Shown here in pieces: positions 38,907 through 57,183 of a stretch of 64,000 nucleotides of DNA. Position 1 is the stretch's first letter. The number at the start of each line of letters is the position of its first letter. The position numbers and the translations under genes are program-made. Source of the DNA: a virus; the IMG/VR virus record IMGVR_UViG_3300020045_007008, positions 1 to 64,000 of that record. The stretch is one strand, 5' to 3'. The notes under the pieces were generated by a model, which saw nothing but the letters and a program-made list of their open reading frames with translations, searched no databases and was not told the DNA's origin.

Positions 38907-39971
38907 ATGAAATTTAAAAAACAAGATTTAAAAAATATATTATCGATAGTTTGTCCTATTGCTAATAAAAATAATCTATTGCCGATATTGAGTAATATTT
39001 TTATCAAAGCAGAACAAGATAATATAAAATTTATTTCTAGCGATGGTGAAAATATAGTTGAATATACACAAGATGGCCAATATGAAACTGGTGAATATAT
39101 AATTAATTCAAAGACATTTCAAGATTATATTAATCTAATAACAAGTGATGATGTCGAATTAAATTTTAGTGAAAAATGTTCTATAAATAGTAAGACACAT
39201 AAGACAACTATTAATTTACAGAATAATGAAAAATATCCAAATTTATTAGAAAAGACAAATGGATTTGAATATGAAATTGATAGAAAAGAATTAATGAATA
39301 GTATTTCACAAGTATTATTTGCATCATCAACTAGTGATATAAAAATAGAATTATCTGGTGTAAATTTTAATTTCAAAGATATATTAATTTTAGCATCAAG
39401 TGATGGAATGCGATTAGCAGAAAAGAAAATAAATATAAGCGGTGATGAATTAAATATTATAGCACCATCTAAACTTTTGAATATATTATTAAATATATTA
39501 TCAAAAATAAATGATGATAAAATAAAAATTATTGCAAATCAAAATAGTATTTCATTTAAATCTAATAATGCATATATTTCATCGAGATTAATAAATGGTG
39601 TTTTTCCAAATTATTCTCCACTAATATCGAAAGAATTTAAAACAAATATTATTGTTGATAAGAATGATTTAATAAATACTATACAAACTAATGCATTATT
39701 TTCTTTAGATGGGACTATTAAATTAGATATAAATGAAAAATTATATATAGATACAGAATCATCGATGGGTAAAAATAAAAGTGAAATTGATATAATAAAA
39801 ACAGGAGAAAATAATAATATAAAATTTAATTATTTATATTTATTAGAAATAGTAGAAAATATAAAAAGTAATAGAATAATAATAGAAATGAATGATAGTA
39901 AATCGCCTGCTATTATTAAATCAGATATAGATGATAGATTTTTTTGTGTATTAATGCCAATGAATCAATAA
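38907..39971 (+). CDS. dnaN: DNA polymerase III beta sliding clamp
   Basis: LPILSNI, LSGV, ASSDGMRLA, SRLINGVFPNY, FNYLYL, VLMPM. Confidence 0.9.
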   Translation: MKFKKQDLKNILSIVCPIANKNNLLPILSNIFIKAEQDNIKFISSDGENIVEYTQDGQYETGEYIINSKTFQDYINLITSDDVELNFSEKCSINSKTHKTTINLQNNEKYPNLLEKTNGFEYEIDRKELMNSISQVLFASSTSDIKIELSGVNFNFKDILILASSDGMRLAEKKINISGDELNIIAPSKLLNILLNILSKINDDKIKIIANQNSISFKSNNAYISSRLINGVFPNYSPLISKEFKTNIIVDKNDLINTIQTNALFSLDGTIKLDINEKLYIDTESSMGKNKSEIDIIKTGENNNIKFNYLYLLEIVENIKSNRIIIEMNDSKSPAIIKSDIDDRFFCVLMPMNQ

Positions 39972-39974
39972 TTT

Positions 39975-42179
39975 ATGAAATATATAAATGGTTACACATA
40001 TAAGGACAAAATAATTCTCGAATACAAAGAAGATAATATAAAAAAACAAAAAGAAATAATAGATTTTAAATGGTATTTTTATATTAGAAAAGTTGATTTA
40101 TTGAAAATAGATTTAGATAAAATGAAGTCTTGTGGAATGATAGATGATTATATTATTGGAAATGAATATGTCAGATTATATTCTCAAAATTTAAATAATA
40201 ACTACGAACAAGATGCAAAGAAAGCAGTTTTAGAATATTTAAAAAAAGAAAATATAGAAACATTCGAATCTGATTTTGATAGTTTAAAAAGATATTGCAT
40301 TGATAATAGAATAGAAGTAGATGATGATTATGATATATTATATTTTGATATTGAAACTGATGATACAAATATTGGAATAAATATTGGTGCATATCCTATG
40401 TTAACAATGGGAGCAATTGATAATAAAGGTAATAAATTTTATTTTAATGATAAAAATGAGAAAATTCTTTTACATAATTGTTTAGAATTATTTAAAAGAT
40501 ATGATATTATTGCAGGATGGAATAGTTCTGGATTTGATTTACCATATATCAAAGAAAGGATGAAAGAATATAGATTACATTTCAATTGGGGAAGTGTTGC
40601 ACATATTGATATGATGAAACGATTCATATCTCTCTTTAATCTACCTAAAAATTCATTAAATTATGTTGCTGAATATTTTTTAAATGCAAGTAAATTAGAC
40701 CATAGTGGAAAAAGAATTATAGATATATATAATAAAGAACCGGAATTATTGAAAGAATATAATATGCAAGATGTACAATTATTGAAAGATTTAGATGAAA
40801 AGGTCGATTGTTTTAAATTAATGATAAAAGAAGCAAAGTGGTGTAATACTTTTATGAGTAATTTCTATGTTTCAGAATTATTAGATAATTATATTTTAAA
40901 GAATGCGAAAGAAAAGAATATTATATGCCCATCAAAAAAACAACAAGCAGATAATTTTCAATATGCTGGAGCAATAGTATTAGAACCTGACCGAGGATTA
41001 TATGATGATGTATATGTATTTGATTTTAGTAGTCTATATCCTAGTATTATAATGACATCAAATATTGGTTTTGATACATTGGATAAAAATGGACATATAA
41101 AGAACCCAGGCTCAGGATTTAGATTTTCAAATAAAAAGAAATCAATCATAAAAGAAACTATTGAAGGAATGATAGGAAAAAGAAAAGAATATAAAGATAA
41201 AAAATTAAAGATGATTGAAGAAGGAAAAAATAAAGGACCAGAATTTGAAACTATAGTTAGTAATGAATATGTTGTTAAAGCTCTTACTAATTCTATCTAT
41301 GGTATAATGGGAATGCAAACAAGTAGATGGTATTCAGTTGAAATAGCAGAATCAATCACAAAAATGGGGCAATGGATAATTACATTTACATTAAATTATT
41401 TTAATTCAATTGGCTTTAAAGTAATCTATGGTGATACAGATTCACTATTTATCTGTGATAATGAAAATAAAGATATTAAAAATAAAATGGAAGATATTTT
41501 AAAAGAATATCATAGAGTTTTAGAAGATGAACTTAAACAATATGGAATTTTAGAATCACATATTCATTTAGAAGACGACAAAACATTTAGTAGATTTTTA
41601 TTAGTTGATAAAAAAAATTATACTGGTATTGCTTCAAGCATAAACGGTAAAAAAACAAATGAACTATATACCAAAGGACTTGATTATATAAAAAGAAATA
41701 CAATTAAATATGCAAGTAATAAACAAGAAAAATTAATTAAACATATTTTATTTGATAATTATAATATTGATGATTGTATTTGGTTTATCGAAGAATGCCA
41801 AAGAGAAGTGATAGATGGTAAATTAGATATTGAAGATTTAATCATCAGAATGAAAATAACAAAACAACCAAAGGAATATGCGTCAAAATTACCACACGTT
41901 ATTATTGCCGAAAGAATTATAGAAAAGACTGGATATTTACAAAATTATGAAATTGAATATATTGTAAAAAATAGTGATATAAAAGAATATATAATGGTAG
42001 AAGAATATCAAGGCAAATATGATGAATATTTCTATTGGAATAATAGAATTTATAATTTATTAAAAAGAATATGTAATGTTGCATTTCCTGATGAAGATTG
42101 GGAAAGATTTTATATGCAAAAAATAAGAGAAAGAGCAGGTAGAAAGAAAGAACAAAATCAATTATTTTTACAATTTTAA
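39975..42179 (+). CDS. Family B DNA polymerase with 3'-5' exonuclease
   Basis: FDIET, GWNSSGFDLPY, YNMQD, DFSSLYPSII, KALTNSIYG, YGDTDS, KKNY. Confidence 0.95.
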   Translation: MKYINGYTYKDKIILEYKEDNIKKQKEIIDFKWYFYIRKVDLLKIDLDKMKSCGMIDDYIIGNEYVRLYSQNLNNNYEQDAKKAVLEYLKKENIETFESDFDSLKRYCIDNRIEVDDDYDILYFDIETDDTNIGINIGAYPMLTMGAIDNKGNKFYFNDKNEKILLHNCLELFKRYDIIAGWNSSGFDLPYIKERMKEYRLHFNWGSVAHIDMMKRFISLFNLPKNSLNYVAEYFLNASKLDHSGKRIIDIYNKEPELLKEYNMQDVQLLKDLDEKVDCFKLMIKEAKWCNTFMSNFYVSELLDNYILKNAKEKNIICPSKKQQADNFQYAGAIVLEPDRGLYDDVYVFDFSSLYPSIIMTSNIGFDTLDKNGHIKNPGSGFRFSNKKKSIIKETIEGMIGKRKEYKDKKLKMIEEGKNKGPEFETIVSNEYVVKALTNSIYGIMGMQTSRWYSVEIAESITKMGQWIITFTLNYFNSIGFKVIYGDTDSLFICDNENKDIKNKMEDILKEYHRVLEDELKQYGILESHIHLEDDKTFSRFLLVDKKNYTGIASSINGKKTNELYTKGLDYIKRNTIKYASNKQEKLIKHILFDNYNIDDCIWFIEECQREVIDGKLDIEDLIIRMKITKQPKEYASKLPHVIIAERIIEKTGYLQNYEIEYIVKNSDIKEYIMVEEYQGKYDEYFYWNNRIYNLLKRICNVAFPDEDWERFYMQKIRERAGRKKEQNQLFLQF

Positions 42180-43065: not shown

Positions 43066-43521
43066 ATGTATCAAAAAGATGTAATACAATTATATAAAGA
43101 ATTAAGTAAAAAATATAATTGTGATTATAGACTTGAATTTAATAATAGAAAAACAGTTTTAGGCTCTTGCAATTATAATAAAAAAGTTATTTCATTATCT
43201 AAACCATATATAGAATCAAATAAAGATGAAGTAATTAAAAATACAATATTACACGAAATAGCTCACGCATTGACAAAAAGTGGGCACGATAAAAAATGGA
43301 AATTAAAATACATAGAAATTGGTGGAAATGGAAATAGAGTAAATTATGAAGCAGTTATAAAATATAAATATATTGCTACCTGTCCTGAATGTGGATATGA
43401 AACTGAATATAATAAAAGACAAAGCGTAGCGTGCCATAAATGTTGTGTGAAATATAATAATGGTAAATTTTCAAATAAATATATTCTAATATTTACTGAA
43501 AATAAAAATATAAAGTTATGA
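43066..43521 (+). CDS. SprT-like zinc metalloprotease
   Basis: LGSC, ILHEIAHA, GHD..WK, CPEC. Confidence 0.85.
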   Translation: MYQKDVIQLYKELSKKYNCDYRLEFNNRKTVLGSCNYNKKVISLSKPYIESNKDEVIKNTILHEIAHALTKSGHDKKWKLKYIEIGGNGNRVNYEAVIKYKYIATCPECGYETEYNKRQSVACHKCCVKYNNGKFSNKYILIFTENKNIKL

Positions 43522-44045
43522 ATTATAATGAAAAAGATATAAGAGAATTTTTAAGTGAATCAAATAAGATAGAACGAGAATATTCAGAACAGGCATTTGA
43601 AGATGCAATTTTAGCTTGGAAATATGCATATAAATATGCGATACCGTTTAAAATTAAGGGACTTCAAAGTACAAAATATATTTTAAAAATACATAGATTA
43701 TTATGTCAGAATATAAGACCAGATATCGCTGGTAAGTATAGAGATTGTGATGTTTGGATAGGTGGAGAAATAAAAAGATTTATAAGCAGAAAATTTTTAG
43801 AAGATGTTACTCAAGGTTGGATTAATACTATAGATATAAATCAAACAAAAAAATTAACAAAAAAGAAAAAAGAAGAAAAAGTAAAAGAATGGCATATTGG
43901 ATTTGAGAAATTGCACCCATTCGAAGATGGTAATGGCAGAACAGGAAGAATATTATACAACATTCATAGATTATTATTAGATTTACCAATACATATAATT
44001 CATACTGGAGATGAACAGTTAAATTATTATCGATGGTTCAAATAA
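43518..44045 (+). CDS. Fic-domain protein (AMPylase family)
   Basis: HPFEDGNGRTGR; ESNKIE. Confidence 0.9.
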   Translation: MNYNEKDIREFLSESNKIEREYSEQAFEDAILAWKYAYKYAIPFKIKGLQSTKYILKIHRLLCQNIRPDIAGKYRDCDVWIGGEIKRFISRKFLEDVTQGWINTIDINQTKKLTKKKKEEKVKEWHIGFEKLHPFEDGNGRTGRILYNIHRLLLDLPIHIIHTGDEQLNYYRWFK

Positions 44046-46140: not shown

Positions 46141-47430
46141 ATGTTAAGTATCTCAAAAACAGCCAATTCAAATTATCTTGCTAAAATAGTAAAAATAAAG
46201 AATTTAAGAAAACATAATAATGCAGATAGACTACAAATAACAAGTATTGATTTTCAAGATGTTATTGTTGGATTAGATGCAAAAGAAGGAGATATCTATT
46301 GTTTTTTTCCATTAGAGTGCCAAATAAATAAGAATTTTTTGTCATTTACCAATTCATTTAGGCATAGTGAATTAAATCAAGATAAAGAAAAAGTTGGATT
46401 TTTTGAAGATAATTGTAGAGTACGAGCAGTAAAATTAAGAGGAGAAAAGTCAATGGGATATATAGTTCCAATTGAAGAATTAGAAAAATTCATTGGAAAA
46501 GATTTAAAAGATTATATTGATGAAGAATTTGATACTGTTGATAATATTTTATTATTACAAAAATACATAATAAAGACTAGAGAATCTAATATCACCAATG
46601 GTAAAGGAAGGAAGCTAAAAATATCAAGACTAGTAGAAGGACAAGTTAGATTGCATGTTGATACTGAAAATTTAAGAAAGAATGCTTTTAAAATCAATCC
46701 AGAAGATGAAATTACTATTACATATAAAGTTCATGGGACATCTTGGTGGGTAAGTAATTTATTAGTAAAGAAAAAATTAAATTTATTTTATAAGTTTTTA
46801 AAACTAATTGGAATTAAAATTATAGATAAAGAATATGATTATATCTACGGTTCAAGAAAAGTCGTAAAAAATGAATATGAAACATCAGGAAAACAACATT
46901 TTTATGATACTGATATTTGGGGAGAAATAAAGGAAGAAATAAAAGAATTTATTCCAAAAGGATATACTATTTACGGTGAATGTTTAGGATATACAAAAAG
47001 TGGAAGTGAAATTCAAAGTAAATATGACTATGGTTGTAATGTAGGAGAAAAAAGAATTCAGATATATAGAATTACCTTTACTAATGAAGATGGAGTAGTT
47101 AATGATTTATCTTCAAAACAAATAAAAGAATTTTGCGATAGATTTGGATTAGAATATGTACATATATTTTATATGGGATTAGCAGGAAACTTATATCCAG
47201 AATTAAACTTAAATGAACATTGGCAAGAAGAATTCATTAGAAGATTGGAGAAAGATTACAATGACAAAAATTGTTTTATGTGTAAAAATGAAGTACCAGA
47301 AGAAGGAATAGTATTGAGAAAAGAAACACTATTTTATTTTGAAGCATATAAATTGAAGTCTTGGAAATTTCTTGAGTGGGAATCGAAGGAATTAGATAAA
47401 GGAGAAGTCGATATAGAAAGTAATAATTAA
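46141..47430 (+). CDS. RNA ligase (Rnl2 / DRB0094-like) with N-terminal OB-fold
   Basis: HNNADRL...KLRGEKSMG N-domain; motif I KVHGTS, YGE, EGIV, YKLKS. Confidence 0.85.
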   Translation: MLSISKTANSNYLAKIVKIKNLRKHNNADRLQITSIDFQDVIVGLDAKEGDIYCFFPLECQINKNFLSFTNSFRHSELNQDKEKVGFFEDNCRVRAVKLRGEKSMGYIVPIEELEKFIGKDLKDYIDEEFDTVDNILLLQKYIIKTRESNITNGKGRKLKISRLVEGQVRLHVDTENLRKNAFKINPEDEITITYKVHGTSWWVSNLLVKKKLNLFYKFLKLIGIKIIDKEYDYIYGSRKVVKNEYETSGKQHFYDTDIWGEIKEEIKEFIPKGYTIYGECLGYTKSGSEIQSKYDYGCNVGEKRIQIYRITFTNEDGVVNDLSSKQIKEFCDRFGLEYVHIFYMGLAGNLYPELNLNEHWQEEFIRRLEKDYNDKNCFMCKNEVPEEGIVLRKETLFYFEAYKLKSWKFLEWESKELDKGEVDIESNN

Positions 47431-48106: not shown

Positions 48107-48307
48107 ATGAAAAAATTAATAGTATTTATTGTATTATTTTATCAGTTCGCCTCTGGTTATTGGATATTTGGGTTTTCTATCCCGCGAGTGACATCTATCG
48201 CTATAGACAGCAATGGTCAATGTGTAAAATGGGAAGGAGAACAAAGACAATGTACTATTGACGAAATATATATGATGAATAATCTTTACAAATTATATGA
48301 AGAATAA
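48107..48307 (+). CDS. Small membrane/secreted protein
   Basis: MKK followed by a hydrophobic N-terminus. Confidence 0.45.
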   Translation: MKKLIVFIVLFYQFASGYWIFGFSIPRVTSIAIDSNGQCVKWEGEQRQCTIDEIYMMNNLYKLYEE

Positions 48308-49145
48308 AATATTAGTACTAAAAGGACTCCCAGCTTCAGGTAAAACGACATTTGCAAAAAAGTTGATTAATGAAGAAAAGAATTGGAAAAGAATAAATAA
48401 AGACGATTTAAGAGCAATGATTGATAATAATATTTGGAGTAAAGACAATGAAAAACTTATCTTAAAAATAAGAGATAATATTATTATTGATTGTTTAGTA
48501 AATAAATATAATATTATTATTGATGATACTAATTTTGCAGAAAAACACATTAATCGAATAAATGAAATTGCAGATAGACTTGACGTTGAAGTAGAAGAAA
48601 AGTTTTTCGATATTCCAGTAAATGAATGTATTAAAAGAGATTCGGAAAGACCCAATCCAGTAGGAAAAAAAGTCATAATGAATATGTATAATACCTATTT
48701 AAAAAAAGAAATACCACCAGTAAAATGGATAAGTAAAAGAAGAACTGCTATAATATGTGATATAGATGGTACATTGGCAAAAATGAAAAATAGAGGACCA
48801 TTTGATTGGATGAAAGTAGAGAATGATGAATTAAATAAACCAGTTGCTGATATATTAGAAAAATATCAAGATAGTGTAGATACAATTCTTTTAAGTGGTA
48901 GAGATGGAATATGTAGAGAACAAACAGAACAATGGTTAGCTGATAATAATATAAAATATACTTGTCTTTTTATGAGAGATATTGATAATAATGAAAAAGA
49001 TAGTATAATAAAAGAGAGAATATATAGAGAAAAAATAGAATCATTATATAATATTTTATTTATTCTCGATGATAGGACTCAAGTAGTAGAGATGTGGCGT
49101 AATTTAGGATTAACTTGTTTTCAAGTAGCAAATGGCGATTTCTAA
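48297..49145 (+). CDS. pseT: Polynucleotide 5'-kinase / 3'-phosphatase (T4 PseT-like)
   Basis: GLPASGKTT, DDLR, DDTN; HAD domain CDIDGTLA, SGR, DDRTQVV. Confidence 0.93.
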   Translation: MKNKILVLKGLPASGKTTFAKKLINEEKNWKRINKDDLRAMIDNNIWSKDNEKLILKIRDNIIIDCLVNKYNIIIDDTNFAEKHINRINEIADRLDVEVEEKFFDIPVNECIKRDSERPNPVGKKVIMNMYNTYLKKEIPPVKWISKRRTAIICDIDGTLAKMKNRGPFDWMKVENDELNKPVADILEKYQDSVDTILLSGRDGICREQTEQWLADNNIKYTCLFMRDIDNNEKDSIIKERIYREKIESLYNILFILDDRTQVVEMWRNLGLTCFQVANGDF

Positions 49146-49829: not shown

Positions 49830-50618
49830 TTGGATGTAAACACAATGATTGGGATGATAATACATATAAATTATCTGAAGAATATGAATAACAACAAGAT
49901 AGGTAAAATGAAAAAACAATTTATAGATATAATACCAGATGAATTAAATATCTGTCTATTGGGATTGCAAGGAAGTAGAGCATTAGGTATGGCTATGAAT
50001 GAAGATGCTGATTATGATTATCGAGGTATATTTATAGAAGATAATAAAAAATTATTATCCCTAAGAAAGACAAAAGAAACTATTGATTTTGGTAGTTCAA
50101 AAGATGGTGAAGCAGAATTTGTTTTTCATGAAATTGGAAAGTTCTTCAAATTAGCAATAGCTGGAAATCCAAATTTGATTAATTTATTATTTTTACCAGA
50201 ATATAATTATTCAGATAATTATGGTAGAATGATAATTGCAAATAAAGAGTTATTTTTAAGTGAGAAGGCAATACGAAATTCATTTGGTGGATATGCATTT
50301 GGTCAGATGATGTATTTAAAAAGAAATCATAAATTTACTAAGAATAAATCTATAGAAAGCAAAATAAAAAAACACATTAGACATTGCTTTTCTCTATTTG
50401 ATATGGGAATAGAACTATTAGAAACAGCAAAAATAACATTTCCATTAGAGAATGCTAAAAAATATATTGAGATTGCAGAATGGAATGATGAAGATAGGTG
50501 GATGAAATTATTTGAGGAAACAAATGATAGATTTAACGATTGTAAATGTATATTACCAAAAGAACCAAATATTTTATTATTAGAACATTTATTATTAAAA
50601 ATTAGAGGGTTAGTGTAA
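49830..50618 (+). CDS. RlaP-like (Pol beta superfamily) nucleotidyltransferase
   Basis: GSRALG...DADYDYRGIF, GNPN; true start probably 49863 or 49908. Confidence 0.8.
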   Translation: MDVNTMIGMIIHINYLKNMNNNKIGKMKKQFIDIIPDELNICLLGLQGSRALGMAMNEDADYDYRGIFIEDNKKLLSLRKTKETIDFGSSKDGEAEFVFHEIGKFFKLAIAGNPNLINLLFLPEYNYSDNYGRMIIANKELFLSEKAIRNSFGGYAFGQMMYLKRNHKFTKNKSIESKIKKHIRHCFSLFDMGIELLETAKITFPLENAKKYIEIAEWNDEDRWMKLFEETNDRFNDCKCILPKEPNILLLEHLLLKIRGLV

Positions 50619-51243: not shown

Positions 51244-51591
51244 ATGGATATACAAAAATTTATAGAAAAAAGAAAAGAAGATGGACAGAATAGTTTTAGA
51301 GATAAATGTCTTGTCATTGGTGTAGATATGGATGGAGTATTATGTAGTGGAGAATTATGGGAAGGAGAAAATAGTGAACCAAAACCAATACAAGAAAATA
51401 TAGATAAAATAAATGAATTAAGTAAAACTAATTTTATAGTAATTCATACAGCAAGAAGAAAAGAATCGGCAACAAAAACAATAAATTGGCTCAATAAATA
51501 TCAAGTGGTATATCATGCAATTAGATTTGATAAAATGCCAGCTGATTTATATATAGATGATAAAGCATTTAACTTTGATATCTATGAATAA
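51244..51591 (+). CDS. HAD-family phosphatase
   Basis: DMDGVL, HTAR, K..ADLYIDDKA. Confidence 0.8.
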   Translation: MDIQKFIEKRKEDGQNSFRDKCLVIGVDMDGVLCSGELWEGENSEPKPIQENIDKINELSKTNFIVIHTARRKESATKTINWLNKYQVVYHAIRFDKMPADLYIDDKAFNFDIYE

Positions 51592-51752
51592 AAATTTAGA
51601 AATAGTACAATCAAAATCAAAAGAAATTGGACATTGCGTTTGTTCAAAATGTTTTACTTGCCCCTGTAATTATTTTACTCAATATAATTTATGTAAATGT
51701 GCAGGGGATAAAATAAATCAAGAAGAGTGGCTAAAATTTAATTTAAATAAAA

Positions 51753-52145
51753 ATGAATACATTTGAATTAGGTAAGAAAGGCGAACAAATTATTTATCAG
51801 TTATTTAAAAATAAAAAATATCAAATTCAATCACCAGACTTTTTTGTATACAGCAAAGAAATAGATAAATATATATGTATTGAAGTTAAATTTAAAAATA
51901 ATCAATTTAAATCTCAATATTTTAATGGTTATGGAATAAATAAAAATCAAATATATTTAAGAAATAAACTATTTGAAAAAACAAATATAAGAACATTCAT
52001 AATAATAGTTGATAATACGATAAAAAATATTTATGGTCAATATTTAGATATATTACAGAAAGGAAAATTTATAAATACAAAAGATACTACAATATATGAT
52101 TTAAATAGCTATTTATTAATAAAAAAAGGTATTGACTTTTTTTAA
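51753..52145 (+). CDS. PD-(D/E)XK nuclease-like protein
   Basis: GKKGE, PDF, IEVK. Confidence 0.6.
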   Translation: MNTFELGKKGEQIIYQLFKNKKYQIQSPDFFVYSKEIDKYICIEVKFKNNQFKSQYFNGYGINKNQIYLRNKLFEKTNIRTFIIIVDNTIKNIYGQYLDILQKGKFINTKDTTIYDLNSYLLIKKGIDFF

Positions 52146-52160
52146 ATAATACTATATAAT
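52132..52160 (+). promoter_or_regulatory. Sigma70-type promoter of the deazaguanine operon
   Basis: TTGACT-17-TATAAT. Confidence 0.8.
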
Positions 52161-52186: not shown

Positions 52187-52594
52187 ATGCACATATTGAG
52201 ATTAAAACACCATTTCGATGCGGCTCATCGATTAGAATTTCATAGTGGATTATGCTCGAACCTCCATGGCCACCGCTGGGATGTAGAAGTATTAATACGA
52301 AAAAATGAATTAGATAAAAATAAATTAGTAGTTGATTTCGGAGATATTAAAAAAATAATTAATGAGTTCGACCATAAGACTATTTTAAAAAATTGTGAAG
52401 AAAATCAAAAATTAATAGATGTTATTTTCGAGATGGGATGTGCTTATATTTTATTAGGTGATTCACCTACTGCAGAAAATATTGCACAAGTATTAACAAA
52501 TAGAATTAATGAAGAATTACAAATATCAAATACAGAAGTTATTGTTTGGGAATCACCAGAAGCATCAATTGAATATTATAATAATGAAATATAA
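52187..52594 (+). CDS. queD: 6-carboxytetrahydropterin synthase
   Basis: FDAAHRL, C.NLHGH, DFG, FDH, PTAENIA, VWES. Confidence 0.93.
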   Translation: MHILRLKHHFDAAHRLEFHSGLCSNLHGHRWDVEVLIRKNELDKNKLVVDFGDIKKIINEFDHKTILKNCEENQKLIDVIFEMGCAYILLGDSPTAENIAQVLTNRINEELQISNTEVIVWESPEASIEYYNNEI

Positions 52595-52598
52595 AAAT

Positions 52599-53249
52599 AT
52601 GATAAAAGTAAATATCAATGAAGCATTTCATTCTATTCAAGGAGAAGGTGCAACAATAGGGCATCCAATATTGTTTATTAGATTAGCAGGATGTAATTTA
52701 CATTGTTTGTTCTGTGATACTCAATACCATACTAATATTAATTATAATGAGATAAATGATGAGTTAGATAAATTATTAAGAAAACATAAATCATGGTGCA
52801 TTACTGGTGGTGAGCCATTATTACAGCAAGATAAAATCCTAGAACTTATTAGAGAATATGACCCAGAATGGGTAGAAATAGAAACTAATGGTACAATAAA
52901 ACCATCTGATGAATTATTAGAAATTATTAGTCAATGGAATATAAGTCCTAAAAATCCAGAACAAAACGAAGTGAAAAATATTGAATATAAATTTTTAGAT
53001 AGTTTAGCATATAATATTAATTATATAATTAAATTTGTATATACAGATAAACAAGATGAAAATTTTATTGAGACAATGATAGATAATTATTATATAGATG
53101 AAAATAGAGTATTTATAATGACAGAAGGTGCAACAAAAAAAGAGCAAGAGCACAATATGCCAAATGTAATAGAGTATTGTTTAAAAAATGAATTTAATTT
53201 TAGTCCCAGGCTACATGTGTTGCTCTGGAACAATAGACAAGGAGTATGA
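52599..53249 (+). CDS. queE: 7-carboxy-7-deazaguanine synthase (radical SAM)
   Basis: F.SIQGEG, RLAGCNLHCLFCDT, ITGGEPLLQ, IETNGT, SPK, PRLH. Confidence 0.93.
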   Translation: MIKVNINEAFHSIQGEGATIGHPILFIRLAGCNLHCLFCDTQYHTNINYNEINDELDKLLRKHKSWCITGGEPLLQQDKILELIREYDPEWVEIETNGTIKPSDELLEIISQWNISPKNPEQNEVKNIEYKFLDSLAYNINYIIKFVYTDKQDENFIETMIDNYYIDENRVFIMTEGATKKEQEHNMPNVIEYCLKNEFNFSPRLHVLLWNNRQGV

Positions 53250-53728
53250 TTGTAACATATAAACAAATAATAAAAGACTCAATTGAGTTAGCAAATCACA
53301 TTAAAAACAATTATGTTAATAGAGCAAAAGAGTATAAAGCAATCCATGGTATCCCAGCTGGCGGAATAGCAACTGCAGTTGTAATGGCTCATGTATTGAA
53401 TATTGATAATATTCTAAGTGCTGAAGATTATAAAAATTATGAAAATAAATCAGAAGTATTAGTAGTAGATGATTTAGTAGACAGTGGTGCAACATTAAAA
53501 AAGTTTTCAGAATCAGATTGTGCTGTAGTATATAAAAAACCACATTCACCTCAACCAACATATTACTATAAAGATATTGAAAGTGGTTGGGTAGAATTTC
53601 CACACGAAAAGGACAAAGCAGGTATTCTTGACCATATTATAAGAGTATTCTCTTATATTGATGTTCAATTATCAGATGAGGAACAGCAATTAGTTATACA
53701 ATTACTTAATAAAATAAAGAATAAATAA
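53246..53728 (+). CDS. Type I purine phosphoribosyltransferase (Gpt-like)
   Basis: GIPAGG, VLVVDDLVDSGATL PRPP loop, WVEFPHE. Confidence 0.85.
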   Translation: MIVTYKQIIKDSIELANHIKNNYVNRAKEYKAIHGIPAGGIATAVVMAHVLNIDNILSAEDYKNYENKSEVLVVDDLVDSGATLKKFSESDCAVVYKKPHSPQPTYYYKDIESGWVEFPHEKDKAGILDHIIRVFSYIDVQLSDEEQQLVIQLLNKIKNK

Positions 53729-53787
53729 TTAATATAGAGTTATAAAATTAGACTTATCTTTTTACTACTTTTCCTCTATTCAAAAAA

Positions 53788-54534
53788 ATGAAAAAAAAGA
53801 TTGTTATTATTTCTGGAGGAATGGATTCAACTACACTGCTATATGATGTAGTGAATCAATTCTCATCAGAAAATGTGATTGCTTTAACATTTTTCTATGG
53901 TTCAAAACATAATGACCAAGAAATAAAGAGAGCAAAAATTAGTTGTCAAAAATTAAATGTTGAGCATAAATTATTTGATTTATCGTCAATATTTCAAAAT
54001 TTTAACTCATCATTATTAAAAAAAGAAGACAGTGAAATAATACCAGAGGGGCATTATGCAGAAGACAATATGAAAAAAACGGTTGTCCCATATCGAAATG
54101 GTATATTATTATCTATTGCAATTGGATTTGCTGAAGATTTAGATTGTGATTCAGTATATTATGGTGCTCACGCTGGTGACCATACTATTTATCCAGATTG
54201 TCGAGATGAGTTTGTGAAAGCATTTTCATTAGCATCAATATTAGGTACATATAATAGAGTGAAAGTAATTGCAAGTTATGAAAATATTGATAAATATGGA
54301 ATTCTACAGATAGGAAAAAAATTAAATATTAATTATATTGATACTTGGACGTGTTATAATGGAGAAGAAGCACCTTGCGGAAAATGTGGAAGTTGTACAG
54401 AAAGAGCTGAAGCATTCTATAAAATGAATATGAAAGACCCATTATATACAGATAAACAATGGCAAGATGTATTATTAAATCTTAAAAAATTAAACATAAT
54501 TGATAATACCAATTATCAACCTGAATTATTATGA
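53788..54534 (+). CDS. queC: 7-cyano-7-deazaguanine synthase
   Basis: SGGMDS, VPYRN, YPDCR, TWTCY, CGKCGSC.ER. Confidence 0.95.
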   Translation: MKKKIVIISGGMDSTTLLYDVVNQFSSENVIALTFFYGSKHNDQEIKRAKISCQKLNVEHKLFDLSSIFQNFNSSLLKKEDSEIIPEGHYAEDNMKKTVVPYRNGILLSIAIGFAEDLDCDSVYYGAHAGDHTIYPDCRDEFVKAFSLASILGTYNRVKVIASYENIDKYGILQIGKKLNINYIDTWTCYNGEEAPCGKCGSCTERAEAFYKMNMKDPLYTDKQWQDVLLNLKKLNIIDNTNYQPELL

Positions 54535-55118
54535 GAAATAAAGAAAAATTAGAACAAATTTCAAAATCTCTAATAGAAGAAATCGGAGAAAAATCAGACA
54601 GACAAGGATTAATTGGTACACCAGATAGAATGGCAAGAATGTTTTTAGAAGTTTTTAGAGGATATGATGAAACACAAAAACCCAAAATAACAACATTTAA
54701 AAATGGAACTGATGGAATAGTATATGACCAAATTATTACTGATACGGGTTCATATTATTCATATTGTGAACATCATATGGTACCATTCTTCGGTCAATAT
54801 TGGTTTGCATATATTCCACACCCAGACGGAAAAATTTTAGGATTAAGTAAAGTTGCAAGAATCGTTGATTATTATTCGGCTAAAATGCAAATACAGGAAA
54901 GATTAGTTCAAGATATCGTGAATAATCTATGGAGTGCTTTAATAGATAGTAATAGAATTGAACCTATAGGAATGGCTTTGGTAATGAAAGGTGAACATTT
55001 ATGTAAATCAATGCGTGGTGTGAAAAAAAGAGGAACAATGACGACATCTGATTTGAGGGGTTGTTTTAAAACTGAAGCTGATACAAGAAAAGAATTTTTT
55101 GACTTGATAAAATTATGA
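54531..55118 (+). CDS. folE: GTP cyclohydrolase I
   Basis: GL..TP.R, CEHHMVPF, GLSKVAR, QIQERL, HLCKSMRGV. Confidence 0.95.
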   Translation: MRNKEKLEQISKSLIEEIGEKSDRQGLIGTPDRMARMFLEVFRGYDETQKPKITTFKNGTDGIVYDQIITDTGSYYSYCEHHMVPFFGQYWFAYIPHPDGKILGLSKVARIVDYYSAKMQIQERLVQDIVNNLWSALIDSNRIEPIGMALVMKGEHLCKSMRGVKKRGTMTTSDLRGCFKTEADTRKEFFDLIKL

Positions 55119-55609
55119 AAGAAAAATTAGAGAAATTATTACAACAAATAAAAGAAAGAAAAGGTGGTGCTGATTCATCAAAATCACATTTAAAGAGTGC
55201 ATTATATGATTGGAGAATTGAAGATAACTGGTCTAGAAATAATTGCTTTGTAATAAGTGAAAATGATTTGGGATTTGCATTTTATACATTCACGATACGA
55301 GAGCCTAGACACTGCACATTAAGACATATATTCACATTAGAAGAAGCAAGAGGTCAAGGAATTGGAAAGAAACTAATGAATAGAATTGAAGAGCATATGA
55401 AGAGAGATAGAGTTGAGATAATGCGATTTTATGCAAATAAGCCAGCTATTAAATTCTATGAAAAATTAGGATATACTTGGCTCGGTGAAAATAAACAAGG
55501 ATTGCCATTCACATATTGTGATATATGTACAAAGAAGAATATTAATAATCAACAACAATTGAAAAAAATATTCAAAATTTATAATCAAAATAATTTATTT
55601 AATATCTAA
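55115..55609 (+). CDS. GNAT-family acyltransferase inside the deazaguanine operon
   Basis: IFTLEEARGQGIGKKLM (acetyl-CoA motif A), N.PAIKFYEKLGY (motif B). Confidence 0.85.
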   Translation: MKEKLEKLLQQIKERKGGADSSKSHLKSALYDWRIEDNWSRNNCFVISENDLGFAFYTFTIREPRHCTLRHIFTLEEARGQGIGKKLMNRIEEHMKRDRVEIMRFYANKPAIKFYEKLGYTWLGENKQGLPFTYCDICTKKNINNQQQLKKIFKIYNQNNLFNI

Positions 55610-55614
55610 ATTTT

Positions 55615-56094
55615 ATGTCAGATACAAAAAGTTTAAAATCATTAGGTTCTAAATCAACAAAATATGAATGTAATGGTGTCAATCCAGAATTATTGGAAGT
55701 ATTTGAAAATCAACACCAAAAAAATAATTATTTAATACCATTTATTCAACCAAGAGATGAATTTACTTCATTATGTCCTAAGACTGGGCAACCCGACCAC
55801 GCCGCTTTAGAAATTATATATATACCGAGAGAAGATTGTGTAGAATCAAAATCATTAAAGCTTTATTTAGTATCTTTTCGAAATAGCGGAGAATTTCACG
55901 AAGATGTCTGTAATAGAATAGCAGATGATTTAATTAGATTATTAAATCCTAAATATCTCAGAGTATATGGTGATTTTGCACCAAGAGGCAGTTTAGCAAT
56001 AAAACCACTTATTGAACGATGGAATATAGAAGAAGGTATAGAAAAACAAGATATAAAATTTTTAATTAATTCTTGGGATTTAAAGAAAAAATAA
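55615..56094 (+). CDS. queF: NADPH-dependent preQ0 reductase (unimodular)
   Basis: EFTSLCPKTGQPD, QueF motif ESKSLKLY, FHE, F.PRG. Confidence 0.93.
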   Translation: MSDTKSLKSLGSKSTKYECNGVNPELLEVFENQHQKNNYLIPFIQPRDEFTSLCPKTGQPDHAALEIIYIPREDCVESKSLKLYLVSFRNSGEFHEDVCNRIADDLIRLLNPKYLRVYGDFAPRGSLAIKPLIERWNIEEGIEKQDIKFLINSWDLKKK

Positions 56095-56095
56095 A

Positions 56096-57112
56096 ATGAA
56101 TAGTTTAAAAGATTTTAATTTATTTTATGCAGTTAGTGGACGAATGTTCTTAGAATATCTTCTTATCTGTAATGTTAAAAATATTCTTATTTCTTTTGCT
56201 TATTTAGACCCGTGGTCAATGAGTAATATAATGAAGCACAATAATATAAATTTAATTTGTGATTCTGGTGCATTTACTGCTTGGAATTTAAGTCAAAAAT
56301 ATAAAAAGAAGGGCGACCCGAATTGGCAAAAATATTTAGTTGATATTGATGCATATGTTGAATTTCTGAATAAACATAAAGATATAATTTATAGAGCAGT
56401 AAATATTGATGTCATCCCAGGTGAACAAGGTATAGAACCAACAGAGGAGCAAATAATTGAAGCGGCAGAGCAAGGGTGGAAAAATTATCAATATTTAAAA
56501 AGCAAAGGATTTGATACAATTCACGTATTTCATCAAGGTGAGCCAGATTGGGTTCTAGATAGAATGTTGAAAGAATGTGATTATATTGGAATAAGTCCAA
56601 GTAATGACTATAGCACAAAGAGAAAAAGATTGTGGATGGATAGAATTTTTAAATATATTGCTGATTCTAATAACCCAAAAATAAAAACTCACGGATTTGC
56701 TGTAACAAGTGAAGAATTAATGAATAATTATCCTTGGTTTTCAGTTGACTCAAGTAGCTGGTGTCTAAGTGCCGCGATGGGAAAAGTAAGAACAAAATAT
56801 GGTGAGTTATATGTAAGTGATAGGGGAAAATATGGAGATGATAATATTTTTTCAAAAACAGGTGAAGTGAGAAAAGAATTAGATAAATACTTCATAGAAA
56901 AAATTGGATATAATATATCAGCATTAGCAGGTGAACCAGAAAAAATAATTAAGAAATGTGAATGTGGAATCGAAAATGAAATCGAGATACCGTGCAGTCA
57001 ATATAAGACAAGAACATTAGCGAATATATTATATAATTTAGAATTTGAAGAAAAGAGACGAGCAAGCGGACCGAATTTGAATTTTATGAATCAAAATAAA
57101 TTATTTGAATAA
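56096..57112 (+). CDS. dpdA: DpdA-like DNA-guanine transglycosylase (TGT fold)
   Basis: DSGAFT, NIDVIPG, VFHQGE, YIGIS, HGF, SVDSSSW; last gene of the que operon. Confidence 0.8.
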   Translation: MNSLKDFNLFYAVSGRMFLEYLLICNVKNILISFAYLDPWSMSNIMKHNNINLICDSGAFTAWNLSQKYKKKGDPNWQKYLVDIDAYVEFLNKHKDIIYRAVNIDVIPGEQGIEPTEEQIIEAAEQGWKNYQYLKSKGFDTIHVFHQGEPDWVLDRMLKECDYIGISPSNDYSTKRKRLWMDRIFKYIADSNNPKIKTHGFAVTSEELMNNYPWFSVDSSSWCLSAAMGKVRTKYGELYVSDRGKYGDDNIFSKTGEVRKELDKYFIEKIGYNISALAGEPEKIIKKCECGIENEIEIPCSQYKTRTLANILYNLEFEEKRRASGPNLNFMNQNKLFE

Positions 57113-57154: not shown

Positions 57155-57183
57155 TTGACATTTTTTATATAATATTATATAAT
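57155..57183 (+). promoter_or_regulatory. Sigma70-type promoter upstream of the non-coding RNA region
   Basis: TTGACA-17-TATAAT; ATCACTAAGATTAAA at 57127-41. Confidence 0.85.

Follow-up and report, generated by a model that had tools for sequence, protein, structure and literature searches.

The window analyzed here, a 64,000-nucleotide (nt) stretch of the virus record IMGVR_UViG_3300020045_007008 (its positions 1 to 64,000), contains a 7-deazaguanine operon in which the gene for a GNAT-family acetyltransferase sits between folE and queF. From comparison of sequences and gene neighborhoods we propose, at a probability of roughly 0.6, that the DpdA transglycosylase of this phage inserts preQ1 (7-aminomethyl-7-deazaguanine) into DNA and that the GNAT then acetylates the inserted base on the polymer, producing 7-acetamidomethyl-7-deazaguanine. 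In the predicted route FolE, QueD, QueE and QueC would take GTP to preQ0, QueF would reduce preQ0 to preQ1 with its free aminomethyl group, DpdA would exchange guanine in the phage DNA for preQ1, and the GNAT would use acetyl-CoA to acetylate the resulting deoxynucleoside (dPreQ1) at its 7-aminomethyl nitrogen, within the DNA polymer. The end product would be 2'-deoxy-7-(acetylamino)methyl-7-deazaguanosine, made by enzymes whose C-terminal tails (DpdA and GNAT) would dock on the phage beta clamp as that of its family B DNA polymerase (PolB) would.

The operon comprises eight closely spaced + strand open reading frames (ORFs) at 52187-57112, in the order queD-queE-PRTase-queC-folE-GNAT-queF-dpdA (PRTase, phosphoribosyltransferase) that an earlier note on this DNA had read from the letters. 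All are present at the following coordinates, and their families were matched in Pfam, NCBIfam and PHROGs:

52187-52594, + strand: queD, 6-carboxytetrahydropterin synthase (Pfam PTPS 3.3e-29; TIGR03367 2.4e-23, under cut-off)
52584-53249, + strand: queE, radical SAM 7-carboxy-7-deazaguanine synthase (Pfam Radical_SAM 6.5e-9)
53246-53728, + strand: type I PRTase, Gpt/xanthine-PRTase-like (Pfam Pribosyltran 1.9e-5; PRK09177 1.5e-10, under cut-off; phrog_8995)
53788-54534, + strand: queC, preQ0 synthase (Pfam QueC 5.1e-58; TIGR00364 182 bits against a cut-off of 150)
54531-55118, + strand: folE, GTP cyclohydrolase I (Pfam 3.1e-50; NF006826 over cut-off)
55115-55609, + strand: GNAT acetyltransferase, 164 aa, candidate dPreQ1 N-acetyltransferase (Pfam Acetyltransf_1, PF00583, 9.7e-16, 58.5 bits against a cut-off of 20.7)
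55615-56094, + strand: queF, unimodular NADPH-dependent preQ0 reductase, which makes preQ1 (TIGR03139 3.3e-43, 146 bits against a cut-off of 86.9)
56096-57112, + strand: dpdA, DNA guanine transglycosylase (phrog_887 2.3e-54)

The ATGA overlap of the GNAT with folE and the 5-nt gap separating it from queF, both claimed earlier, are directly visible in the sequence, and the PRTase start overlaps the queE stop in the same manner (ATGA). The start of queE is itself uncertain (52509, 52584 or 52599); its five best NCBIfam rows are all QueE models, each under its cut-off. The preQ0 genes (FolE, QueD, QueE and QueC) are thereby all present, with QueD and QueE under the NCBIfam but over the Pfam cut-offs. 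The QueF call holds by profile score and by translation, which includes both the NADPH motif ESKSLKLY and the sequence CPKTGQPD, whose cysteine we take to be the catalytic one. The published form of the NADPH motif is E(S/L)K(S/A)hK(l/Y)(Y/F/W), to which ESKSLKLY conforms (PMC10516641). The window DpdA matched 191 phage records by tblastn at identities of at most 33% (the best matches being to phages that include Flasso, Dp-1 and CAjan; the annotation "7-deazaguanosine inserting enzyme" appears on several), with no Pfam match and no relative by sequence among PDB chains. A DpdA family member, the preQ0 genes and a QueF bearing its NADPH motif together make this a DpdA-based 7-deazaguanine system.

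The embedded enzyme belongs to the GNAT superfamily by profile, by fold and by its acetyl-CoA loop. Such loops follow the motif R/Q-x-x-G-x-G/A; residues 79-84 of the window protein read RGQGIG, conserved across the subfamily described below. Its AlphaFold2 (AF2) model (predicted local distance difference test, pLDDT, 92.9) matched 152 PDB chains at E<=1e-3, those listed being nearly all GNAT acetyltransferases. These structural matches are generic (template modeling score, TM, 0.45-0.60), and matches of a GNAT profile (A1) to the PDB are confined to acetyl-CoA-core stretches of the chains. A search of 5.8 billion proteins returned 57 homologues at 47-60% identity, and an exhaustive HMMER comparison with 1.84 billion representatives found 216 scoring E<=1e-3, among them 31 with E<=1e-10 and 7 with E<=1e-30; rows down to about E 1e-12 reach the N-terminal region, and weaker ones cover the generic GNAT core only. 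The invariant features of the closer group are an N-terminal H-L...W..E..W stretch and a C-x-L-R-H motif. No tblastn match to the window GNAT was found in 50,697 phage records, nor any to a relative from a viral contig (locus L003), and viral-contig scans with two further members (A3 and A4) added no subfamily loci, the extra matches being 24-31% identical. On these comparisons the GNAT is a member of a distinct, small subfamily mostly of uncultured viruses. That the predicted base has gone unseen in mass spectrometry of isolates would then be because the subfamily is absent from cultured phage records.

We examined the genomic surroundings of this subfamily by typing neighbors with tblastn, using as queries the window genes together with genes from three reference loci. 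Eighteen loci on viral contigs divide into 11 of a thymidine-hypermodification type, 4 of a QueF type and 3 of neither. The thymidine-type viral clusters are composed of ParB, ADDT (amino-acid:DNA transferase), GNAT, a 260-aa DAO-like protein, Ploopntkinase3 and Tet_JBP (Pfam assignments made on L003), the QueF-type ones of GNAT, QueF, QueC, QueD, QueE and FolE. In metagenome contigs the best 80 of 173 relatives were typed, 35 belonging to the subfamily and 45 others serving as an internal control (one end fragment, the rest generic GNATs that are 30-46% identical in the core). The 35 subfamily loci comprise 11 of thymidine type, 7 of QueF type, 11 beside a gene with a predicted amidohydrolase fold (hereafter AH-like), 1 beside a QueE-like gene and 5 that are uninformative (four on contigs of at most 3.6 kb, one with the GNAT near the contig end); QueF, FolE, PRTase or QueE occurs in the examined flank of 4 of the 11 AH-like loci. 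None of the 45 control loci, in the same scan, has any of these neighbors.

The subfamily accompanies QueF alongside three types of transglycosylase: the phrog_887 type of the window, DpdA3 and a DpdA4-like type. The DpdA3 case is a 48-kb contig (L074) that is syntenic with vB_FspM_immuto_2-6A, a phage whose DNA contains formyl-dPreQ1 (fdPreQ1), at identities of 77% for QueD, 82% for QueE, 76% for FolE, 81% for DpdA3, 66% for QueF and 69% for PolA; there the GNAT and an AH-like gene are inserted immediately before QueF. The co-occurrence of GNAT homologues with queF and dpdA, which the earlier note had put forward as a check, is thus borne out in independent phage lineages and with three DpdA types. 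Its stronger form, that the linkage is specific to queF and dpdA, stands only in part: the association is recurrent, but members also occur in other settings, namely one thymidine-type clade and pairs with the amidohydrolase-fold gene. A tree of 34 distinct sequences places the thymidine-type members together in a single clade (100/99) whose sister is the QueF-type members (joint support 100/95), and in it the window GNAT clusters with two further members, L009 and L067 (100/98). As read from their neighborhoods, the remainder of the tree is largely preQ1-associated.

These neighborhoods bear directly on whether the GNAT has anything to do with DNA. It could have come to its place in the operon by chance or through co-expression and act on a protein, polyamine, tRNA or antibiotic-like acceptor; the best NCBIfam rows are indeed RimI-like and resistance acetyltransferases (all far under their cut-offs), and spermidine and protein N-acetyltransferases are among the closest solved folds. 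We regard this as very unlikely, given a subfamily that recurs in two chemically convergent DNA-modification pathways with unrelated backbones and three DpdA types, control GNATs for which the corresponding count is 0 of 45, and a C-terminal tail in common with PolB and DpdA.

The acceptor that we propose, the aminomethyl nitrogen of preQ1, is favored by the gene content of the whole source genome, a virus record of 81,449 bp with direct terminal repeats that is estimated complete. ADDT, Ploopntkinase3 and Tet_JBP have no match in this genome (the ADDT positive control was recovered in 3 of 3 records), which rules out thymidine hypermodification as the target of the GNAT here. The two known tailoring enzymes of preQ1 are likewise ruled out in the window genome, with no match to DUF3109 (DpdM, PF11307) and none to Formyl_trans_N (DpdN, PF00551; the control matched 12 of 14 genomes). 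With no rival amine pathway and no other tailoring enzyme, preQ1 would be the only source of a DNA amine and the GNAT the only tailoring candidate.

The chemistry that we predict has a parallel in a pyrimidine system. In phage PaMx11, gp46-gp49 (an amino-acid:DNA transferase, an FAD-dependent lyase, an acetyltransferase and a 5-hydroxymethyldeoxyuridine (5-hmdU) DNA kinase) convert 5-hmdU in DNA into 5-acetylaminomethyl-dU (PMC8989533). The GNAT of this set, gp48, acts last, and in vitro it acetylates 5-aminomethyl-dU (5-NmdU) in oligonucleotides with acetyl-CoA as donor; in pathways of this type the amine arises solely on the DNA polymer (PMC8989533). Metavirome clusters in which TET/JBP replaces the dUMP hydroxymethylase have also been reported (PMC8989533). 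The thymidine-type loci of the GNAT subfamily (11 viral and 11 metagenomic) contain the PaMx11 parts arranged almost identically. The 260-aa DAO-like protein resembles gp47 at its dinucleotide-binding N-terminus only; this protein has a GxGxxG start, and its Atlas language-model features fall in DAO/glycine-oxidase clusters (0.96-0.97).

Like the activity predicted for the window protein, that of gp48 is a GNAT acetylating a major-groove aminomethyl base in polymeric DNA, and relatives of the window GNAT fill the equivalent slot in the ADDT-DAO-kinase clusters. The two differ in that gp48 lacks the N-terminal motif of the subfamily and has a pyrimidine C5 substituent as its acceptor, and in that the window genome offers no setting of ADDT, FAD-dependent lyase and 5-hmdU DNA kinase. 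By sequence the window GNAT is not a gp48 orthologue but a parallel case (hhalign probability 94%, over 77 core columns only). By analogy, the thymidine-type clade strengthens the chemical argument for amine acetylation: an aminomethyl amine in the major groove, on pyrimidine C5 or on 7-deazapurine C7, would be the simplest common denominator of both pathways, and it hints at one enzyme family that serves purine and pyrimidine hypermodification alike. GNAT-fold modification of DNA is known elsewhere, in Mom of phage Mu. Overall, the earlier proposal that the GNAT acylates the preQ1 aminomethyl group finds its support in comparative genomics (the linkage, the thymidine parallel and the lack of DpdM and DpdN).

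The thymidine-type members also inform on the stage at which acetylation would occur. The same final base would result if the GNAT acetylated free preQ1, or a nucleotide made from it by the PRTase, and DpdA then inserted acetyl-preQ1. Such an order would suit the translational coupling of the GNAT gene to folE and queF, which serve base synthesis, and the conservation of the PRTase in these clusters; moreover, the 2023 survey of phage 7-deazaguanines leaves open whether DpdN formylates preQ1 or dPreQ1, and VH7D DpdA2 also inserted preQ0 and CDG (7-carboxy-7-deazaguanine), at lower efficiency (PMC10516641). [quoted passage not shown] The basic character (median isoelectric point, pI, 9.2, with 28 of 33 members above 8 and the window GNAT at 9.55, against a median of 7.46 and 28 of 58 above 8 for generic GNATs of similar length) lends weak support to a DNA substrate.

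The tail resembles the short motifs by which proteins engage the sliding clamp, and the features concerned are as follows:

38907-39971, + strand: beta sliding clamp (DnaN-like), three-domain, the proposed docking platform (Pfam DNA_pol3_beta, DNA_pol3_beta_2 and DNA_pol3_beta_3, all over cut-off)
39975-42179, + strand: PolB, ending in QNQLF (42153-42167) (Pfam DNA_pol_B 2.3e-60)
55586-55600, + strand: QNNLF, clamp-binding-like motif of the GNAT, residues 158-162 of 164 (motif scan)
57092-57106, + strand: QNKLF, C-terminal motif of DpdA (motif scan)

The clamp gene lies directly upstream of that for PolB, a protein with only some 25% identity to any phage record. Among the 249 ORFs of 50 aa or longer in the genome, the pattern QN.LF occurs three times, in PolB, the GNAT and DpdA, and in each case no more than three residues from the C-terminus; shuffled proteomes contain on average 0.37 occurrences anywhere and 0.02 at the C-terminus, and three at the C-terminus arose in 0 of 2000 shuffles. 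In the AF2 model of the GNAT the tail is disordered (pLDDT below 50 at residues 160-164). [quoted passage not shown] A complex prediction of two phage clamp copies with the GNAT, run without folded controls, scored 0.11 against a mark of 0.34, which speaks neither for binding nor against it. The closest relatives of the window GNAT have no QNxLF tail, and its presence here would fit an adaptation, specific to this lineage, to the clamp that the phage encodes.

From this distribution of motifs, DpdA and the GNAT are probably recruited to newly made DNA by QNxLF docking on the phage clamp. We know of no DNA-base-modifying enzyme shown to use a clamp-binding motif (no search aimed at this was made). 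The tails suggest a possible link between modification enzymes and the sliding clamp, and clamp coupling, if true, would be a new organization of DNA hypermodification. A more far-reaching version of our proposal, which we advance only tentatively, is that the subfamily is a general N-acetyltransferase for major-groove aminomethyl groups in DNA, fitted by phages into either a purine (dPreQ1) or a pyrimidine (5-aminomethyl-dU) pathway, and tethered to the clamp in this phage together with DpdA through QNxLF such that base exchange and acetylation would follow the fork, with a product that would be a ninth natural 7-deazaguanine in DNA. As a separate observation, DpdA itself, ending in QNKLF, may be clamp-tethered.

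Several observations weigh against acetylation of dPreQ1 in DNA, or against parts of that proposal. Que genes are absent from the short flanks of L009 and L067, the two members closest to the window GNAT in the tree, and L074 has a DpdN homologue (51% identity) alongside its GNAT. One genome of 31.5 kb, estimated complete (G003), has the GNAT with an AH-like gene and DNA methylases, and holds no QueC, DUF6610, other Que genes or window-type DpdA; the subfamily is therefore not strictly tied to the preQ1 and thymidine pathways, and its range may be wider than these two. The thymidine-type members are monophyletic, and their association with thymidine clusters accordingly counts as one evolutionary event and not eleven. 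The similarity of the window GNAT to gp48 is at core level only (35% over 69 residues), and that of the thymidine-cluster DAO-like protein to gp47 is weak (hhalign probability 23%), such that 5-NmdU as an intermediate of these clusters rests on synteny. Position 2 of QNxLF is Asn, where the published clamp motif has an aliphatic residue. Finally, the donor could be an acyl-CoA other than acetyl-CoA.

This last point leads to a different account, in which the GNAT modifies phage DNA by other chemistry, with propionyl-, malonyl- or succinyl-CoA as donor, or on another acceptor with other partners. GNAT donors are unreadable from sequence, and the structural matches are generic; many subfamily members are paired with an amidohydrolase-fold enzyme, and G003 holds such a pair without Que or ADDT genes. 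We think this account improbable for the window, whose genome contains neither the AH-like partner nor another DNA-amine pathway; the assayed analogue, gp48, uses acetyl-CoA (PMC8989533).

The AH-like gene (about 330 aa) is of interest in its own right, being coupled in translation to the GNAT, whichever of the two comes first (L013, 7031-8017; L074, 8458-9450; L009, 5258-6037; 11 metagenome loci). Its protein has no match by sequence in Pfam, PHROG or PDB; the model (pLDDT 87.6) has an amidohydrolase-superfamily fold, with LigI, COG3618, IDCase and ACMSD as best matches (E 7e-9, TM about 0.5), and D5, H7, N9, K107, H149, H181 and D259 are invariant. In L074 the pair lies between a DpdN homologue/kinase and QueF; one guess would be a deformylase or deacylase. 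In L013/G003, the 31.5-kb record, the GNAT and AH-like pair adjoins a 550-aa N6_N4 DNA methylase and a second methylase, and the pair may also serve another DNA modification.

Among characterized systems, one of the nearest to the window operon is the fdPreQ1 cluster of immuto. Both combine a full preQ1 pathway with a DpdA and an N-acyl tailoring enzyme close to queF, a homologous PRTase lies between the immuto queE and folE, and L074, a close relative of immuto, carries a GNAT of the subfamily in the same cluster. They differ in the tailoring enzyme (a GNAT, of acetyl-CoA type, in the window; Formyl_trans_N in immuto), in the transglycosylase (the phrog_887 type DpdA of the window has no match in the examined part of the immuto cluster, DpdA3 included) and in the product, that predicted for the window being 14 Da heavier than fdPreQ1 and 42 Da heavier than dPreQ1 (a calculated [M+H]+ near 338, where fdPreQ1 was seen at 324; PMC10516641). 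By its family and setting the window GNAT would be a functional analogue of DpdN and not a member of its family. A comparison with DpdM is also apt, as this enzyme tailors the same preQ1 aminomethyl nitrogen after QueF, in a step that its authors propose to occur on DNA (PMC10516641). DpdM differs in being a DUF3109 metal-binding (Cys-cluster) methylase, a family that the window genome lacks.

Eight 7-deazaguanine derivatives have been reported in phage DNA, an acetylated one not being among them in the text of the 2023 survey, which lists methyl- and formyl-dPreQ1 (PMC10516641). The words "acetyl", "GNAT" and "phosphoribosyl" are absent from its main text (PMC10516641), and neither full-text nor wider literature searches (supplements not covered) turned up a paper describing an acetyl-preQ1 base, which agrees with the earlier suggestion that the base is undescribed in phage DNA. 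The window GNAT is in this respect a compact candidate for the enzyme behind a new natural DNA base, with a confident model, and an enzyme acetylating DNA could find use as a tool where DNA bearing amines is to be acylated site-selectively. 7-Deazaguanine bases in phage DNA block restriction enzymes. Host glycosylases, for their part, recognize 7-deazaguanines (preprint 10.1101/2025.10.29.685425); as hosts answer with glycosylases, further masking of the amine would be a plausible next move in the arms race.

A small Gpt-like PRTase is conserved in phage preQ1 clusters (window, 53246-53728; L029, 8947-9342; L074, 3798-4199; L089, 470-805; two of these occurrences are in metagenome relatives), and its only relatives among phage records are those in the fdPreQ1 cluster of Flavobacterium phage immuto (gp211). 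Salvage of guanine set free by DpdA is one possible role, ribosylation of a deazapurine base another. The QueF-type viral records also encode fusions of ParB_N to DUF6610 (L012, 12796-13971; L010, 15112-16287; G007), which are found in metagenomic virus genomes of 34-39 kb with full preQ1 clusters, two of the records (34 and 39 kb) being estimated complete. DUF6610 corresponds to the family named DpdA4, which a 2023 description restricts to archaeal viruses (PMC10516641); the fusions may widen its range.

Two promoter-like sites flank the operon:

52132-52160, + strand: sigma-70-like promoter candidate TTGACT-17-TATAAT, 27 nt before queD (consensus match 11/12)
57155-57183, + strand: perfect TTGACA-17-TATAAT, which would begin the next transcription unit past dpdA (consensus match 12/12)

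The earlier note had one promoter driving all eight genes. The 11/12 site before queD and the lack of any site above 10/12 inside the operon agree with this, but promoter-like sites are in total no more frequent than in shuffled sequence (62 against 62.6); from the sites themselves, a single promoter is plausible.

Upstream of the operon lie genes for a Fic-domain protein (43518-44045), an RNA ligase (46141-47430), a polynucleotide kinase-phosphatase (48297-49145) and a nucleotidyltransferase (49830-50618), which together look like an RNA repair set. A cysteine-rich ORF of 69 aa (51557-51766) follows, separated by one gene (51753-52145) from the promoter-like site at 52132-52160.

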